Shown here: one piece after another, positions 15,776 to 36,561 of the stretch
Layout of the letters: every line of letters starts with the position of its first letter
Numbering within the stretch: the first letter of the stretch is position 1
The notes under the pieces: generated by a model
The model's database searches: none
Told to the model about the DNA's origin: nothing
What the model saw: only the letters and a program-made list of their open reading frames with translations
Position numbers and translations under genes: made by a program
Sequence record: OK272482.1
Length of the DNA: 64,000 nucleotides
DNA from: Escherichia phage JLBYU08
Strand: one strand, 5' to 3'

Positions 15776-16054
15776 ATGAGCTGCGAAAAATCTTTTTTCA
15801 TCATCATTTACGGTAAGGATAACTGCCCACATTGTGTCAGAGCAAAAGAATTTGCAATCAGCAAAGGTCTGCCTTTTGTATATAAGACACTTGGCGAGGG
15901 ATACACAAAAGAAGAGCTTATTGAGAAGTGTAGTCCAATCGTCCCCAGAACGTTGCCGCAGATCTTCTTAGAAAGCGATCTTGACAGTATCCATATAGGC
16001 GGTGCCGACGATTTCATCTCTTTTGTTAAGAATGGTTTTGGAGAGAAAAAGTGA
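15776..16054 (+). CDS. glutaredoxin/thioredoxin-like redoxin
   Basis: CPHC active site in MSCEKSFFIIIYGKDNCPHCVRAKE; sits between nrdB and nrdD. Confidence 0.75.
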   Translation: MSCEKSFFIIIYGKDNCPHCVRAKEFAISKGLPFVYKTLGEGYTKEELIEKCSPIVPRTLPQIFLESDLDSIHIGGADDFISFVKNGFGEKK

Positions 16055-18174
16055 AAGTTGTAAAACGGGACGGTAGAGAAGAGTTCTATAACGGAATTAA
16101 GGTGATCAAGGCGGCAGAGTCCGCCTTACTTGAGTCTGGACATACTGAAGAAGAAGCTTACCGGATCGCTTGTGCGGTTAATGAAGTTGTTGCTAACAAT
16201 CTACCAACCGACCAGTGCACGATCTCTGTAAAAAATATCCATATCCTTGTTGAAGATGCTCTTATGGATATGGGTTTAAAATGTGCAGCCAGAGAATACA
16301 TCCAGTATAGACAGACAAGAGATAATAACAGAGAGGCAGGTGGAAAACTGCTTGCAGATATTAGTGGCTTCTTGGATCGAACTTGTGATGAATTTACAAA
16401 AGAAAACGCAAATAAGCCTACCAATCATGTACACACTCATCGTGACCTGCTTGCAGGCATCCTTAGCAAACACCTTGCATCAACACAGATCCTGCCAGAC
16501 CGTGTCTCAGAAGAGCACAATAAAGGCTTCATCCATGTGCATGATCTTGACTACTTGATCAGTCCGTTAACAAACTGTTGTTTGGTAAATTATCCAGATA
16601 TGTTGGAAAACGGATTCAACATTGGTAACGCCCATGTCAGTAAGCCGAAGTCAATAGGGGTTGCAACAACAATCCTTAGCCAAATCTCTAGTGCGGTAGC
16701 TAGTGCTCAATATGGGGGTCAGACTATGAGCCATATTGATCATTATCTGGCACAGTATGCTGAGGCGACTTATGAGAAGAACCTTAAATTTTGCCAGGAA
16801 CATTGGTTGCCAGATGCTGAGACTGTTGCAATGCAGATGACAGATAAAGACGTATTTGACAGCATGCAGACTTTACTCTATCAAATCAATACGTTAACTT
16901 CTGTCAACGGGCAAACCCCATTCATCACATTAAGTTTAGGTCTGGACACCTCAGTCTTTGGTAGAATGATTACCAAAAACTACTTGAAAGTCCACAAAAT
17001 GGGTCTTGGTGAAGAACGTATCACACCTGTGTTCCCTAAAGTGTTGTTCTTCCTAGAAGAGGGTGTCAACATGAACCCTGGAGATCCTAACTATGATTTG
17101 AAACGATTAGCTCTGGAATGCTCTGCAGAGCGGATTTATCCTGACTTTGTTTCTGTTCCACTAAATCGTAAAGTGACAGGCTCGACAGATGGTAAAGTAA
17201 CGAGCATGGGTTGCCGGAGTTTTCTTAGCAAATACAATGACTTGGAAACAGGCGAGGAGAAATACCTTGGCAGATTTAACTTAGGCGTTGTTAGCCTTAA
17301 TCTGCCAATGATTGCGGCAAAAGCTAAAACGGAAGGTGTTGATTTCTTTGCAGTTCTTGACGAATACCTAGATCTTGCATACGAGGCTCACCTTGTAAGG
17401 GTTGATCGTCTAAAAGGGACAAAGGCAGGGCAGAACCCTATCATGTGGTGTGAAGGCGCTCTTGCTCGCCTGGACCCTGAAGAGAGTATTGATAAACTCT
17501 TCTACGACGGGTACGCTTCCATCAGTATTGGGTATATTGGTGTGTATGAAACCTGTCAGATTTTGGGCAGGGAGGGTGACAAGGCTTTAGCTCTTGGAAT
17601 ACTTCAGCACATGAGAGATGCTTGTGAGAGATACAAGAAGGAAAGTAGACTAGCGTTTAGCTTGTACGGCACCCCTTCTGAGAGTCTATGCTATAAAGCT
17701 GCAACCTGTCTGGATCGTGAATATCCTGAAGTGTTGAAGCACGAGCATGAATATCTCACCAACAGTTTCCATCAGCCAGTATGGATCAATAGCTCTCCTT
17801 TTGATAAGTGGGAGTATGAGGAAGGTTTTGCTATGATCTCCTCTGGTGGCAACATCGGATACGTAGAGACACCAAATCTGAAAAAAAACTTAGATGCTTT
17901 GGAAGCTCTTGTTGATTTCGGATATAAACACATTATGTATTTTGGTATCAACCAGCCTGTGGATAAATGTCTCAAGTGTGGTTTCTCTGGTGAGTTCAGT
18001 GCAACAGCTAAAGGCTTTGTATGCCCAGAGTGTGGAAACCATGAAGAGGGAACGATCAGCGTAATTCGACGTGTGTCTGGATACCTTTCCAGTCCTAACT
18101 CTCGTCCTTACAATAAAGGTAAGCAAGCGGAAGTTATCGAGCGAGTTAAGCACTACGGAAGTTGTGGTTGCTGA
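16051..18174 (+). CDS. nrdD: anaerobic ribonucleotide reductase class III
   Basis: N-terminal ATP-cone, C-terminal glycyl-radical motif RRVSGYL and zinc ribbon CLKCG...CPECG. Confidence 0.9.
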   Translation: MKVVKRDGREEFYNGIKVIKAAESALLESGHTEEEAYRIACAVNEVVANNLPTDQCTISVKNIHILVEDALMDMGLKCAAREYIQYRQTRDNNREAGGKLLADISGFLDRTCDEFTKENANKPTNHVHTHRDLLAGILSKHLASTQILPDRVSEEHNKGFIHVHDLDYLISPLTNCCLVNYPDMLENGFNIGNAHVSKPKSIGVATTILSQISSAVASAQYGGQTMSHIDHYLAQYAEATYEKNLKFCQEHWLPDAETVAMQMTDKDVFDSMQTLLYQINTLTSVNGQTPFITLSLGLDTSVFGRMITKNYLKVHKMGLGEERITPVFPKVLFFLEEGVNMNPGDPNYDLKRLALECSAERIYPDFVSVPLNRKVTGSTDGKVTSMGCRSFLSKYNDLETGEEKYLGRFNLGVVSLNLPMIAAKAKTEGVDFFAVLDEYLDLAYEAHLVRVDRLKGTKAGQNPIMWCEGALARLDPEESIDKLFYDGYASISIGYIGVYETCQILGREGDKALALGILQHMRDACERYKKESRLAFSLYGTPSESLCYKAATCLDREYPEVLKHEHEYLTNSFHQPVWINSSPFDKWEYEEGFAMISSGGNIGYVETPNLKKNLDALEALVDFGYKHIMYFGINQPVDKCLKCGFSGEFSATAKGFVCPECGNHEEGTISVIRRVSGYLSSPNSRPYNKGKQAEVIERVKHYGSCGC

Positions 18175-19385: not shown

Positions 19386-20174
19386 ATGGGTCGAGCTAAA
19401 GAAACAAAACGCATGCGTGATGAAGCTAGAGAGGCTCGCAAATCTGATCGCCTGCGTAAGGCTGCTGAGAAATTTGCTGACGAAAGAGAGCACACCGCTC
19501 CAGCTCTCCGACCAATGAATAAGAAGCAGCAAAAGTATCTTGATTATCTAGGGTCACGTAAGATTATTATTGTAAACGGTGTGTTTGGATCCGGTAAGAC
19601 ATTCATGGCATCTGCATATGCAGGTGATCTTCTGCGTAAGAACGAGATTGATAAGATTATTGTTGCACGTCCTTACGTTCAGACAGGAAAGACTTCAGGA
19701 TTTAAACCTGGAAATGCAATGCAGAAACTGTGGCCCTATCTTCGAAGCATGATGGACACGATTTGTCGTCGTGTTGGCAAAGGTGCTTTTGCCGCAATGC
19801 TGGGAGACGGTCAGAACAGCCGTATCGAGATTTGTGAAGTTGAAAGCATTCGTGGTCGTAGTTTCGATGAGCGATGCTTTGTCCTGATTGACGAGGCACA
19901 GCAAACTAACCCTGAAGAAATGTTGTCAATTATCACAAGGATCTCTGATCAAGCCACCCTTGTAATTATGGGTGATAATAGCCAACGTGACATCCCTGGT
20001 AAATCTGGCCTTGCATGGGTGACGGATTTCTTTACTCGTCATCCAGATCCTGAGGTTGGAATGATCAGCTTTGATAGTCCAGACGATGTCGTTCGTTCTG
20101 GGTTGGGTCGTCAGATCGCACTCAATCTTATTGAGGATCGTGCAAATCATATTTGGACCCCTGTTTCCGAGTAA
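19386..20174 (+). CDS. phoH: PhoH-like ATPase
   Basis: Walker A GVFGSGKTF and PhoH-like layout. Confidence 0.85.
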   Translation: MGRAKETKRMRDEAREARKSDRLRKAAEKFADEREHTAPALRPMNKKQQKYLDYLGSRKIIIVNGVFGSGKTFMASAYAGDLLRKNEIDKIIVARPYVQTGKTSGFKPGNAMQKLWPYLRSMMDTICRRVGKGAFAAMLGDGQNSRIEICEVESIRGRSFDERCFVLIDEAQQTNPEEMLSIITRISDQATLVIMGDNSQRDIPGKSGLAWVTDFFTRHPDPEVGMISFDSPDDVVRSGLGRQIALNLIEDRANHIWTPVSE

Positions 20175-20218
20175 TACAGAAGGGTGGTTATTCCACCCTT
20201 AAATATCTAAAACAGTTG

Positions 20219-20247
20219 TTGACAAATAGGTAAGCTTTAGATATTAT
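20219..20247 (+). promoter_or_regulatory. sigma70-like promoter (TTGACA-N17-TATTAT)
   Basis: Consensus hexamers after PhoH stop and hairpin 20181-20199. Confidence 0.55.
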
Positions 20248-20275
20248 TATCGGACAAAACAGAGAGAAGGACAGT

Positions 20276-20587
20276 ATGGCTACAATACAAGAGAAACTGA
20301 ATAAAATATACTGCCTGTTTGTCTATAACGGCGAGACAATTTTGGCAAATAAGGGATCCAAGAATGTGTGGACCAAGGACAGCGGTGGTAATATAATTAA
20401 CTTAGCGTTGCTACGTGAGCGCCGACACAGATTCTTTATCGAGTCTCGAATTATTGAAAGCAGCACTTGCTACAGAACAGGCGATAAAGTAATTGTTGAC
20501 AATGATACGTGGTATGTGGTAGACTGGCAATCATTGAGTTGTGATGCTTCTGACAATCGTAAGTATTCCATAGTGATTGCTAAATAA
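20276..20587 (+). CDS. hypothetical protein
   Basis: 103-aa ORF downstream of promoter. Confidence 0.5.
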   Translation: MATIQEKLNKIYCLFVYNGETILANKGSKNVWTKDSGGNIINLALLRERRHRFFIESRIIESSTCYRTGDKVIVDNDTWYVVDWQSLSCDASDNRKYSIVIAK

Positions 20588-20647
20588 AGGTAAATGTGAA
20601 TCAGGTTTAAATAAATAGCTTTCAACTTCCAATATTAAGGATTTCTC

Positions 20648-21697
20648 ATGAATTTAACACCTCGCAGAACCATGGTACACGGCATGAAAGAAAAACAGAA
20701 CGGTTTCGAACCTATGAGTAATAAAATGTTTGGTATGCCGGGCGGTATCATGGAAACATACAGCTACCCAACACCTGTTGTTGACCACGTTCTTTATATC
20801 GACGATTTGGAAGACTTACAAGATCATATGTCTCGTCTGCAGACGATCCGTATGGCTCAGCCGGAAGAAAGCATTCGGGTGATCATCAATAGCACTGGGG
20901 GTTGCGTGCACATTGCAATGGCTTATCTGCAGGCATTCCGAGAGTCTCAGGCAAGCGTTGTTGCACATGCTGAAGGGATGTGCTGCTCTGCTGGAACAAT
21001 CTTATGGCTTGGTTGTAAAGAACGTACTGTGGCTCCGGACACAGAGTTTATGTTCCACTACTATCAAGGTGGCACTTATGGTAACGGTGTGAACATGAAT
21101 ACTCAGGTCAGCTACTGGAAAAAACGTTTTGAACGCCTGATCGAAAAATACTACGGTGGGGTGCTGACAGAAGATGAGATCGCATCCATCACAGCTGGTG
21201 GCGAAGTGTGGTTGGACGGAGAAGAGCTGGCAGCACGCACTGGAGCTATTATTCTGGATGAAGGCAACATACAACGCATCCAGAACGGACAAAAACCGAA
21301 AAATCTTCTGGCAAAAGGTGATGAAGAAGGCGTGTTAGGTGAAGCAGGTCTTCCGGAGATTCACCAGTGCACATCTTTAGATGAGTTAGTTCATGCTGTT
21401 GAATCTGCAAAAGCGGGTGGTTCGAAAGGTGATGTTCACACTGTGTTCCTGAATCTGCAGATGGAAAGTGGCGAGACCGTCAGAATTGCCCTGAGTGAGA
21501 TTACTTCAGAAGATCTGCAGAGATTCTCTGTCGTTGAACTTCAGGATATTCTGTCTCAATTGAAGACTACTCTGAACGGCGGTGAAGAGGTTAAGGTGAA
21601 AGATAAGACTCGCAAGCGTCTGGTGGACAATATTATTAAAACAGCAAAAGAGCTCAATGAAAAAATCCTGGGTGCAGGAATTGTCGAAGAAGCTTAA
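20648..21697 (+). CDS. ClpP-like serine protease with C-terminal extension
   Basis: GMCCSAGT (ClpP Ser block GQAASMG analogue) and FMFHYYQGG (His block); about 150 aa acidic C-terminal extension. Confidence 0.6.
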   Translation: MNLTPRRTMVHGMKEKQNGFEPMSNKMFGMPGGIMETYSYPTPVVDHVLYIDDLEDLQDHMSRLQTIRMAQPEESIRVIINSTGGCVHIAMAYLQAFRESQASVVAHAEGMCCSAGTILWLGCKERTVAPDTEFMFHYYQGGTYGNGVNMNTQVSYWKKRFERLIEKYYGGVLTEDEIASITAGGEVWLDGEELAARTGAIILDEGNIQRIQNGQKPKNLLAKGDEEGVLGEAGLPEIHQCTSLDELVHAVESAKAGGSKGDVHTVFLNLQMESGETVRIALSEITSEDLQRFSVVELQDILSQLKTTLNGGEEVKVKDKTRKRLVDNIIKTAKELNEKILGAGIVEEA

Positions 21698-21748
21698 ACA
21701 TTAATTCTAAAGCCCTCTTCGGAGGGCTTTTATGATCTGGAGATTTGC

Positions 21749-22282
21749 ATGACTTGTGCTAGAAAACCTGATGAACAACGTAACGCCTACGATGAGTATG
21801 TGACACCGGAGTGGTGTGCAGAAGGGCTGTATGACCTTATTCCGTTCCCAGAAGACTGGACCTACTTAGAGCCTTGCAGGAATAGTGCCTCAGGTGTGTT
21901 CTACTCCCGTATGCCGTTAGGATCTGCATGGGGAGAAATACAAGAAGGTGTTGACTATCTGAATACAGAATACAACCATGTTGACTGTATTATCACCAAC
22001 CCACCATACAGCCTGGCTCGTGAGTTTGTAGACAAGGCGTTGAAAGATGCTGACGTAGTTATTATGCTTTTGCGTCTTAATTTTCTGGAAAGCAAAGCCA
22101 GATTTGAATGGTGGCTTGATAATGCACCTACTACTGTGATCACAATATCTAAGCGTCCATCATTTCAATCAAACGGCAGAACTGACGGGCAAGCATATGC
22201 ATATTTTGTGTGGGATAAGAAAAACCGTTTAGACTTGCCGCCGTTTATGTGGTTGGCACCCCCAGAGGTAGACCTGAAATGA
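21749..22282 (+). CDS. phage-type DNA N6-adenine methyltransferase
   Basis: DCIITNPPYS catalytic motif in a small (177 aa) protein. Confidence 0.6.
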   Translation: MTCARKPDEQRNAYDEYVTPEWCAEGLYDLIPFPEDWTYLEPCRNSASGVFYSRMPLGSAWGEIQEGVDYLNTEYNHVDCIITNPPYSLAREFVDKALKDADVVIMLLRLNFLESKARFEWWLDNAPTTVITISKRPSFQSNGRTDGQAYAYFVWDKKNRLDLPPFMWLAPPEVDLK

Positions 22283-22563
22283 AAATGAGTGCTAAGGACA
22301 AATTACACCAGTTAGCGCTAAAACGCCCTGTAACGCTCCCTGACGAGCTTAACTCCATTTATGATGCGATTGTAGGGGAGATACAAAATAAAGCGTTAGC
22401 AGGCTTTCTGGGGTGCGGATTTTCGATAAATCTACCCTCGCATCTCTCAGATTACTTCCCGCACATTGTTGGAGATTTAAGGGCAGGAGGTCTGCAGGTA
22501 GATGTTGTTGGCATCTCCCCAGAGAAAAATAATACGGTTGCCTACTTGACAGTAACCTGGTAG
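22279..22563 (+). CDS. hypothetical protein
   Basis: ATG 22279 overlaps MTase stop (ATGA). Confidence 0.45.
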   Translation: MKMSAKDKLHQLALKRPVTLPDELNSIYDAIVGEIQNKALAGFLGCGFSINLPSHLSDYFPHIVGDLRAGGLQVDVVGISPEKNNTVAYLTVTW

Positions 22564-33791: not shown

Positions 33792-34007
33792 ATGAAGATA
33801 GAAATATTTGGTGGAGCTGACAACACTCGTGGCCTGATTTACCTTGAATTCGATGAATCATACCTGCCAGAGGTGTTAAATATAGACTCTGTTGCGGAGG
33901 CTTTGGGAGTAAACCCTAAAGAACTCCACTCTTGTGCTGAGATCGATGGTTGGGAAGAGACCATGAACATTGATTTCAGTGAAGTAGAGGATGAACCGCT
34001 GGACTGA
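33792..34007 (+). CDS. small acidic protein, MKIEI paralog family; last gene of plus-strand arm
   Basis: RBS AGAGGAGA; MKIEIFGGAD... Confidence 0.5.
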   Translation: MKIEIFGGADNTRGLIYLEFDESYLPEVLNIDSVAEALGVNPKELHSCAEIDGWEETMNIDFSEVEDEPLD

Positions 34008-35536
34008 CACACAATTAGCTGCCCGGCTAAAGTGCTGGAAGCACCTATAACACATCTTTCAACTAAATTTCCTACAACCACAATCACTTACCTCCCACAC
34101 ATGACTGTTTGCTTGTTTAGTGAGCAGTCATGCCTTGACATTCTTGCCTATCCTGATAAAATTAAGTTCTTCTCTTTTCTTTTACCGAGTAATTCGGGTT
34201 TTCTGTTCTCTTCGGTTTGAAGGGGTATGGAGATACACCTGAGTGAACAGGGTGAACAACCGAACATTTGGCTATGGCATTAGCATGGCGAAGCGGACGG
34301 GTGACGAAAGAGGGGCCGGAGGACACCAGTCACTGCCATATGATATATGGGTGATAACCTGAAGAGTCTGAATAAGTGTTTAAGTACCAGTCAGAGGAAA
34401 AGGTGAATGGTAGCCGAAGGGGGAGGGGGGGTTTCTTGTATCTTTAATTTGTATATTATGTATACACTTGTAAACCAATCTCATTTGAATTTGTTTACCA
34501 CACAAAGGGGATAGAGACAAATATTATCTATTAAACTTGAATTATTTATAGAAAATACCACAACACCACTTAAGTCTTTGATTTTACACACAAATCCTAC
34601 AGATATTCACCCTCCATATTTAACATACCTGTAACATATTCCATACCCTACCTGTCTGATCAATTCACCCAACCACACCCTCCATATTTTCCCTGTCTGT
34701 ACCACCCCTGCCCCGCCGGGAGTCCCGTCATATCTGGCTTTCCAGCAAATATCACACCCACAAATATCATTGCCTGAAGAGGGTTTCATCCCATAATACC
34801 TGCCTTACCTGAAGAGCGCTTCATATACCCCGTAAATTTTTTTAATTGACCTCCTCCCCGCCGCCGGAGGGGTCGGCTTTTCCCACACAGGCCTGAAGAG
34901 TCAGCCAGAAATATTTGAACAGGTCCAGTTATACCACGATTTTGACCTGACCGACAGGGAGGCCCGAAGGGTCTAGCTTTCAGCTAGAGTCCTTGCAGGA
35001 CCTACAGGAGCGCTGCCAGGCGGACGAAATGGGAATACTTCTCATTCTTATAACAATTCTCAAATATCAAGGCAGTGAGGCAAATTAATAGGTGAGGCCG
35101 TTCACATAGTGGCACAACATTTGCAATCTATTTTGTGTGGGGGAATGAGAATACATATCATTGTGAGAACCATTATCATTACGGGCAATTTAACATAATA
35201 CCCATTATACGCACCACTGACGATACATACAGGGATTGATAACATGGGTTACTGTTTACGCATATAACAATTATATTTCTTACTATTTGTGTGGGATATA
35301 GTTAGCAGCCGATAGATTAGATATTGACCTGCGGACTTCTGACCGTCTAGACGTCTAAACGCCCACACAACAAGGCTTATACATACATCGCTGAATGTAA
35401 ACAGGGCCGCAAAAATGCTACCATACCAGATTGTAAATTTTTCATGCAGCACTTGACAAAGAGGAGAAAAACTTGTCTGACACAATATGACATACTGGGC
35501 ACATTAAACACACTTTAGACTTAATTGACATGCCTG

Positions 35537-35660
35537 ACTGTTTACGCTGTCACTATTCACGCTATTACTATTCACTCCCTTTACTGTTCACGCTCTTACT
35601 GTTTACATGCTTAATGGTTTACATGCTTAATATACTGCATGTCTAATAGTTTACATAGCT
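35537..35660. repeat. iteron-like array, about 7 tandem copies of CT(G/A)TT(T/C)AC(R) with alternating 14/16-bp spacing
   Basis: ctgtttacgct / ctattcacgct / ctattcactcc / ctgttcacgct / ctgtttacatgcttaat / tggtttacatgcttaat / tagtttacatagc read directly. Confidence 0.6.
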
Positions 35661-36509
35661 AACTATTTATACAGATATGATAAGCCATGCCATTCGTTTG
35701 CATGTTAATAATTTATGACATAATATAAAAGCAGGGCAACTATTAGCAGATCTATAGTTGCCTTGCTTGTCATGTCATGATTAACTAAATACAAGGCAAC
35801 TATGATCTGATTAATAGTTTGCAGACAAACTATCACGGGGGTGATGGTTACTGCTTTTATATTATGTCGCGACTCCGTCGCGCCATGCCATTCGTTTGCA
35901 TAGTTGCCTTATTGTTACAGATAAAATAATTGTATTGTTAATTATTTCTTATCTTTCTCTTAGTCATCTAATGATTCCAGTTAGTATAGTAATGTACAGT
36001 AAACATTAGACGACTAAAGATTTATATGCTTATAATAACTTACAGTGACAATTTCGGACTGTTTACGAAAAATGTTGACACCTGAGCCGATTTATGTTAT
36101 GCAGTTTACACGAATAATTATTTTATGCAGGTATTGACTATTCCGTTATTCCATGGTTGGAATAAATACTTAGCAGTCTATAGAATGGTGACGCTACGTG
36201 AATTCTGGAATTTAGTGGCTATAGTTATACTCGATTTTTCACGTAGAACACGCTTTTGTTAGTGTGTAAGTGTATGACTTATAAAGATTTTTAGTTGTTG
36301 ACAAGATACTGAAGATATGCATCAGGTTAAATTTTGTGCAATAGCGGCATTACGTGCAATTTTGGGAGAGAAAACGGGCAAAAATGGCCTTGCTACCACA
36401 CAATGAAAAATTATGCAATAGTTATTTTCCATGTATATTTGTACAGTGTGTGGGATTAATGGCTAGTCAATTATTCCACTTGCCAGGTAGGGCCGTTTAT
36501 GGTAGGAGA

Positions 36510-36542
36510 AGAGCAGACAAAAAGAAAGGGGCCTAAGCCCCT
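36510..36542 (-). terminator. rho-independent terminator ending the minus-strand arm
   Basis: Hairpin AGGGGC-CTAA-GCCCCT; on minus strand followed by TTTCTTTTTGT. Confidence 0.65.
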
Positions 36543-36561
36543 TGATAATTCAGTTAAAAAA

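Follow-up and report, generated by a model that had tools for sequence, protein, structure and literature searches.

What does a phage do with a protease of the ClpP type whose gene lies amongst genes of nucleotide metabolism rather than beside those of the capsid? The question is raised by a gene at positions 20648..21697 of a 64,000-nucleotide (nt) stretch of Escherichia phage JLBYU08 (sequence record OK272482.1), referred to here as the window, which shares 98.5-99.9% identity with many rV5-like phages of Escherichia (genus Vequintavirus). The gene starts with ATG, encodes 349 amino acids (aa) and corresponds to gp117 (ORF122; PHROG 5410) of rV5 (NC_011041), whose coordinates become those of the window when approximately 69,990 is subtracted; like all features of the locus described below, it is on the plus strand. 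The profile of PHROG 5410 covers the protein, including a long C-terminal extension (E = 1.8e-154), with residues 24-345 aligned to positions 4-322 of a profile 323 positions long. In the 2013 genome paper, and in over 100 public records, rV5 gp117 is described as a ‘ClpP (ATP-dependent) protease subunit’, and an original prediction, made from the letters of the window, proposed either a prohead protease displaced from the structural module or a protease with a regulatory role. On the evidence of sequence comparison and modelling, the protein is a ClpP-fold serine peptidase of an uncharacterised phage clade (PHROGs 5410 and 1827). We consider it reasonably probable, although well short of established, that this peptidase is non-structural and cytoplasmic, is expressed early or in the middle of infection, forms its own compartment, and uses its C-terminal domain for recognition or gating.

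The ClpP-fold core

Residues 59-168 match the Pfam model CLP_protease (PF00574) at E = 1.2e-11, with a score of 45.3 bits that exceeds the cutoff of 20.2, and ClpP chains in the PDB are matched in sequence at E~1e-6. A monomer model was built with AlphaFold2 (AF2) on 13 family sequences. Its predicted local distance difference test (pLDDT) values are 84-90 across residues 44-212, the handle helix (residues 150-169) is intact, and Foldseek aligns it with solved ClpPs at E~4e-10, with template modelling (TM) scores of 0.65-0.72 over ~167 residues. Taken together, the model, the Foldseek result and the alignment place the ClpP-fold core, handle helix included, at residues 44-204 (20777..21259). 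Global MAFFT alignments with cellular ClpPs were rejected. They put the C-terminus of ClpP in the wrong place, at the end of the extension, and we have therefore relied on the HMMER local alignment and on the secondary structure of the model.

Set beside cellular ClpP (MEROPS S14; PF00574; E. coli ClpP, PDB 1TYF/2FZS), the phage protein has in common the fold (~167 residues, TM ~0.7, with the handle helix), a nucleophilic Ser and a His as general base in equivalent positions, and the GG motif of the oxyanion region. The differences are considerable: identity across the core is 16-23%, the N-terminal region is unrelated, ~145 residues are added at the C-terminus, Asp171 is replaced by Glu (by Gln in relatives), and polar or charged residues stand in place of the hydrophobic pocket for the IGF/IGL loops of the unfoldases. 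The N-terminal region (residues 1-43; 20648..20776) has pLDDT <50 and is predicted to be disordered. It contains FG-x-PG ... YSYP motifs, with F28, G29, G33, Y40 and P41 conserved, and is unlike the axial loops of ClpP; the Pfam match begins only at residue 59.

The protein scores 29.5 bits against the NCBIfam equivalog model for ClpP (TIGR00493), far under the cutoff of 308.6. The top curated profile is a model of ClpP-related head-maturation proteases, NF045542 (E = 7e-16), but the score of 58.6 bits is again under the cutoff, in this case 120. Membership of either the cellular ClpP family or the head-maturation family is thus not demonstrable; judged by the model, the working mode of the protein may be likened to that of a ClpP-fold chambered peptidase.

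The nearest relatives form one ClpP-like clade, to which ICP1 gp211, the ClpP of KVP40 and K8_046 of the Pakpunavirus K8 belong (family hidden Markov model (HMM) E 1e-40 to 4e-26). In these homologs the Ser, the His and a Glu at the position of E. coli ClpP M92 are invariant, and the surroundings are again early or nucleotide-metabolism genes. ICP1 gp211 and KVP40 ClpP have the canonical Asp of the catalytic triad, whereas in K8_046 it is Glu. Apart from ICP1 gp211, whose tail of 149 aa has no detectable similarity to the rV5-type extension, these homologs end in short tails of 17-63 aa.

The active site

The predicted nucleophile, Ser114 (codon 20987..20989), aligns to Ser97 of E. coli ClpP and lies in ‘CCSAG’; His137 (21056..21058) aligns to His122 and lies in ‘MFHYY’. 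Both are invariant in 13/13 family members and 27/27 clade members. The original prediction had noted Ser and His blocks of the ClpP type, and in the profile alignment both do stand opposite the catalytic residues of ClpP. The position of Asp171 is taken by Glu186 (21203..21205) in the HMMER alignment; in the model this residue opens a strand (residues 186-190) that follows a helix (175-182). The canonical Ser-His-Asp triad is therefore not present, although, as far as can be judged from the alignment, a Ser-His-Glu triad could still function. Across the 27 clade members the outgroup lineages have Asp at the third position, most Vequintavirinae have Gln, and Glu is found in Vequintavirus, L019 and K8. 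The occurrence of Asp outside the Vequintavirinae implies that the clade descends from a canonical triad, which has become Ser-His-Glu in the rV5-type protein.

This variation bears on the idea that the protein is a weakly active or inactive mimic of ClpP that modulates proteolysis in the host, be it by joining host Clp components in mixed assemblies, by titrating them or in some other way. The Gln of most Vequintavirinae and the Glu found here, neither of them Asp, can be counted in its favour, as can the precedent of Listeria ClpP1, which has Asn at the third triad position and is inactive alone. However, the invariance of Ser and His in all 27 members and the retained GG motif of the oxyanion region suggest that catalysis is likely to have been kept, the outgroups have the canonical Asp, and the surface on which host partners would dock is unconserved (see below). 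We regard a mimic as very unlikely.

A separate protease in the head module

If the protein were a head-maturation protease, it would be the sole or a second such enzyme, with its gene outside the head module, and the C-terminal domain might act as a scaffold-like element targeting it into procapsids. Its best curated matches are of this type, NF045542 being accompanied by the protease-capsid fusion model NF045540, and the PHROG head-maturation families 1684, 94, 2976 and 133 also match. The proteases concerned (NF045542, PHROGs 1684, 94 and 133, and S49 fusions such as Felix O1 gp56 and lambda C) are, like the window protein, phage-borne; they are ATPase-independent and often have a non-catalytic C-terminal domain, which in many phage ClpP/S49 head proteases, Felix O1 gp56 amongst them, is a scaffold domain. 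Unlike them, the window gene lies away from portal and capsid genes and in a non-late context, and the slot in the head module is filled by a protease of another family.

The head module of rV5 is ~35 kb from the protease gene, on the opposite strand, and has the order terminase, portal gp064, gp063, gp062, decoration gp061, capsid gp060. In this series gp063 matches Pfam Peptidase_S78_2, the XkdF-type phage serine protease, above the cutoff (E = 1.1e-17). A gene of the gp063 type has the portal gene immediately upstream in 52/53 IMG/VR loci and the capsid gene downstream in 44/53, the remaining contigs ending early, and the His and Ser motifs DAHGEWM, NLFH and G.S are invariant in the 53 loci. 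Homologs in curated records are called ‘prohead protease’ (BASEL phage EmilHeitz) and ‘capsid protease’ (ICP1). A search of PDB sequences with gp063 gave no match, and its identification as a protease thus rests on Pfam and on the conserved motifs. A gp063-type locus was recovered from 14 Vequintavirinae-type contigs, and every one of these has the ClpP-like gene as well. It should be noted that gp063 (NC_011041 55883-56455; L002:5883-6455, minus strand) is named ‘DNA methyltransferase’ in RefSeq and in PHROG 1530, a label that we correct here to head protease. Its start codon has probably been over-called, the first ~50 annotated residues being unconserved and overlapping the portal gene.

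The existence of a dedicated protease between portal and capsid in every relative means that the ClpP-like protein is almost certainly not the capsid-maturation protease, and the other lines of evidence agree. An rV5-type head gene was found within +/-10 kb of the ClpP-like gene in 0/26 close clade loci, a set drawn from Vequintavirinae, ICP1, KVP40-like phages, jumbo phages and unclassified contigs. One clade member belongs to the T4-type phage KVP40, and in T4-type phages heads are matured by gp21. Mass spectrometry (MS) of virions likewise failed to reveal the protein: ORF122 is not among the 19 proteins of rV5 virions, and in Pectobacterium phage CB7 the counterpart of gp063, CB7_5, was detected whereas the ClpP-like CB7_184 is not among the proteins of the table. 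Felix O1 is instructive here because its portal and capsid proteins are homologous to those of rV5 (E 3e-42 and 3e-22) and its head protease is gp56, an S49 protease-scaffold fusion of 448 aa. This protein was considered as an ortholog of the window protein and rejected, the match amounting to only 5.6 bits; the window protein is thus not a relocated ortholog of the Felix O1 head protease. Its C-terminal domain, moreover, matches no scaffold structure (see below).

Expression may point in the same direction. RNA sequencing of ICP1 infection showed that the capsid cluster gp122-126, including the predicted protease gp125, is late, and that, within gp176-gp211, a subset for nucleotide metabolism reaches its maximum at 12 min (PMC7567579). 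The non-late block gp176-gp211 ends at the ClpP-like homolog, gp211. In the window, the protease gene is preceded by a promoter-like site of the sigma70 type and has nucleotide-metabolism genes as neighbours. We therefore regard a role in head maturation as quite unlikely. The displaced prohead protease of the original prediction is not supported by the comparisons that it had itself proposed, namely the profile search against prohead protease families, the location of the capsid gene and, for the little that absence from virions can tell, virion proteomics. Its other suggestion, a possible regulatory role, fits the non-structural context.

The docking pocket for ClpX and ClpA

The IGL loops of ClpA bind a hydrophobic pocket of ClpP that is formed by A52, L48, F49 and F82 of one protomer, to which the neighbouring protomer adds L23, Y60, Y62, I90, M92, F112, L114, L189 and the C-terminal strand (10.1101/820209). 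In the phage protein the counterparts of L48, F49 and F82 are Q65, T66 and E99, and those of L23, Y60, Y62, I90, M92, F112 and L114 are P43, R77, I79, H107, E109, T127 and A129. Most of the substituted residues are invariant in Vequintavirinae, and E109, at the position of M92, is invariant in 27/27 clade members. The replacement of a hydrophobic pocket by polar or charged residues makes the public label of ‘ATP-dependent protease’ doubtful. Both lineages with long extensions, the Vequintavirinae and ICP1, are without Tyr at the Y60 and Y62 positions, and most short-tailed lineages have Tyr, Phe or His there; the correlation with extension length is nevertheless weak, since L026/L027 are an exception.

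The label implies that the protein is a true ATP-dependent ClpP core, replacing or supplementing host ClpP and driven by host ClpX or ClpA. The full ClpP fold with its handle, the passing of the Pfam CLP_protease cutoff and the wording of the public records are consistent with this. Against it stand the unconserved IGF/IGL pocket, an N-terminal region unrelated to the axial loops of ClpP and predicted to be disordered, the low score against TIGR00493, and the emergence of the ~145-residue extension at the docking face. In addition, no unfoldase of the Clp/Hsp100 type was found among the rV5 proteins annotated as ATPases, a set that covers annotated ATPases only and is not an exhaustive scan of the proteome. 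The loss of the pocket, the dissimilar N-terminus and the lack of an unfoldase among the annotated ATPases together make it unlikely that ClpX or ClpA drives the phage protein, and from the alignment and the model we conclude that host Clp unfoldases are probably not used.

The C-terminal extension

The extension comprises residues 205-349 (~145 aa), of which 17% are Asp or Glu; its net charge is -7 and its isoelectric point (pI) 5.05. The corresponding figures for the ClpP core are 14%, -11 and 4.78, a resemblance from which it follows that the extension is not distinctively acidic. The original prediction had described the final 150 residues as an acidic, helix-rich extension. The length was about right, but the sequence is only mildly acidic and, with a disordered linker and a beta-hairpin, not simply helical.

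Three parts can be distinguished. A conserved helix follows the core (residues 205-214; 21260..21289), in which N207, I208 and G214 are invariant and R210 and Q212 are at least 90% conserved. There is then a variable, indel-rich linker (215-243; 21290..21376) that is largely predicted to be disordered, with pLDDT <50 at 222-241; in comparison with genera other than Vequintavirus it is 0-14% identical, and those genera have a deletion of ~17 aa. The third part is an orphan domain (244-342; 21377..21673) made up of a helix, a beta-hairpin (267-271, 277-281) and three helices, in which F293, E297 and R322 are invariant. Its conserved pattern, F.V.EL..IL...G...R..LI, has a spacing like that of SAP/HeH domains. 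However, SAP/HeH profiles match below threshold, in 3/10 members, and the domain is net acidic, and so a role in binding nucleic acid is not supported.

Relatives of these parts outside the family were not found. A phmmer search of 1.8 billion representatives with the extension recovered one family member and three spurious or low-complexity matches (P0013-P0015), and a Foldseek search of BFVD with the C-terminal domain recovered its own family only, with no scaffold or other viral structure matched. The family HMM revealed no similarity between the rV5-type extension and the 149-aa tail of ICP1 gp211. A profile of the C-terminal domain gave a single match amongst 5.8 billion proteins, P0016, a protein of 133 aa encoded on a metagenome scaffold from ENA (L054:3703-4104). 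It was considered as a stand-alone form of the domain and rejected, because it is part of a Mydovirus-type ClpP-like gene that was called in truncated form, with an uncalled gap of 500 nt upstream.

The gene neighbourhood and PhoH

The original prediction was borne out in placing the gene between phoH and a methyltransferase gene, away from capsid genes; Pfam and PHROG matches confirm these neighbours, with the qualification that a further open reading frame (ORF) intervenes. The PhoH-like ATPase gene (19386..20174; Pfam E = 3.6e-47) is a recurrent upstream neighbour. It is followed by a promoter-like site, TTGACA-17-TATTAT (20219..20247), which has 11/12 matches to the sigma70 type, is the counterpart of the annotated rV5 promoter P121, and precedes both the intervening ORF and the protease gene. 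This ORF (20276..20587) encodes 103 aa, corresponds to rV5 gp116 (phrog_5456) and has no match in Pfam or NCBIfam; in 17/19 Vequintavirinae-type loci a homolog precedes the protease gene at a distance of 58-490 nt. A ribosome-binding site, AAGGA (20637..20641), can be read from the sequence, with the ATG of the protease gene 6 nt further on. A scan from the promoter to the end of the protease gene gave no convincing terminator on the plus strand. The 103-aa ORF is probably co-transcribed with the protease gene from the common sigma70-like promoter, and its product could interact with the protease or regulate it. Downstream lies a gene for a small DNA methyltransferase resembling adenine methyltransferases (21749..22282; PHROG 799, E = 8e-67), which starts 0-52 nt past the protease stop codon in 17/19 Vequintavirinae-type loci, a spacing that suggests tight co-expression. 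In the remaining two, an inserted HNH gene lies in between and the distance is 674 nt.

Upstream of the ClpP-like gene, PhoH, NrdA/B, NrdD/G and ThyX recur across the clade loci. The arrangement in Klebsiella phage KNP2 (Mydovirus) and in CB7 is as in rV5, and in ICP1 PhoH (gp208) is followed by the ClpP-like gp211. In KVP40 (L032) the clade member is beside NrdD/NrdG, and K8_046 (PHROG 1827; 182 aa) is located among genes for a ligase and a dCMP deaminase. In the window itself, the gene for the anaerobic ribonucleotide reductase, nrdD (16051-18174), is intact and encodes 707 aa; in the close relatives L007 and L010 it is split into 3-5 pieces, consistent with insertions of mobile introns or homing endonucleases.

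Could the neighbouring PhoH-like P-loop ATPase be the partner of the protease in a two-component machine? In 18/19 Vequintavirinae-type loci PhoH lies 0.5-2 kb upstream; in ICP1 it is likewise upstream, by 0.9 kb, and in two unclassified contigs the distance is 1.9 kb. Both genes are present in 115/115 records of Rheinheimera phages, and in Alteromonas phage V22 the PhoH gene (CDS-146) directly adjoins the Clp gene (CDS-147; PMC7289586). On the other side, ~3,056 phage records contain PhoH, against 836 with the ClpP-like protein, which indicates that PhoH functions without the latter, and the KVP40-like, jumbo-phage and Pakpunavirus loci have no PhoH within 10 kb or nearby. Myoviruses have other modules in common too, and the synteny may be inherited rather than functional. 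We regard a PhoH-driven machine as very unlikely, on a level with the ClpP mimic.

A proposed mode of action

The interpretation that we favour is that of a non-structural, self-compartmentalising peptidase. Host RNA polymerase would transcribe the protease gene from the sigma70-type promoter together with the nucleotide-metabolism and other early or middle genes. The product would form a ring like that of ClpP, enclosing a proteolytic chamber, and would act in the infected cytoplasm on host proteins, early phage proteins or both. The extension is predicted to leave the core where, in ClpP, the C-terminal strand lines the docking pocket. Seven extensions per ring, each consisting of helix, flexible linker and orphan domain, might then crown the axial face, and this crown of C-terminal domains could recognise substrates or partners, or gate the chamber, in place of a partner from the ATPases associated with diverse cellular activities (AAA+).

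Several observations weigh against this interpretation. The higher score for NF045542 than for TIGR00493 puts the protein nearer to head-maturation proteases than to cellular ClpP, and its evolutionary origin may thus be a phage head protease. Head proteases often leave the capsid, which makes absence from virions weak evidence. The Gln at the third triad position in most Vequintavirinae may signify low or partner-dependent activity. In some outgroup members the pocket positions Y60 and Y62 still hold Tyr or Phe, and the argument from the pocket has as its basis a sequence alignment and a monomer model, not the structure of a complex. Finally, the literature on phage members of the ClpP-like clade was found to contain annotations only and no functional study.

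A bolder proposal is that the clade is a phage ‘mini-proteasome’, either ATPase-independent or coupled to PhoH, in which a ClpP-like ring without the ClpX/ClpA pocket has its C-terminal domains as inbuilt receptors for substrates or as gates; it would serve, in early to mid infection, to clear particular host proteins, targets of takeover or anti-defence, or spent early phage proteins. We think this unlikely, to about the same degree as that the protein is a ClpP core driven by ClpX or ClpA.

Other observations in the window

A stretch of ~2.5 kb at ~34000-36550 is poor in genes, with no ORF >82 aa, and coincides with a change of sign in GC skew and a switch of coding strand; it corresponds to the unannotated gap at 104013-106618 of rV5. 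It contains a cluster of repeats (35684-35917) in which a direct repeat of 20 nt and an inverted repeat of 18 nt, both perfect, are accompanied by a AAGCAGGGCAACTAT / ATAGTTGCC motif in 4-5 copies. The stretch has no match in Rfam; it may be a replication origin or a regulatory region.

Nineteen GenBank records of ‘Campylobacter phage’ (MG0656xx), with C. jejuni given as the host in 17, are 98.5-99.9% identical to rV5-like phages of E. coli over 19386-22300. They are probably mislabelled or contaminant assemblies.

Significance

The gene was already annotated. What has been added is evidence against both the head-protease and the ATP-dependent labels, together with a description of an orphan C-terminal module. 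The labels matter, given that hundreds of virulent myovirus genomes carry a gene called ‘ATP-dependent Clp protease’, including those of rV5-like therapeutic candidates, ICP1 and KVP40. If the ‘mini-proteasome’ were to prove real with PhoH as the partner, this would be the first function for phage PhoH. The wider question is what a phage would gain from having a cytoplasmic chambered protease of its own.

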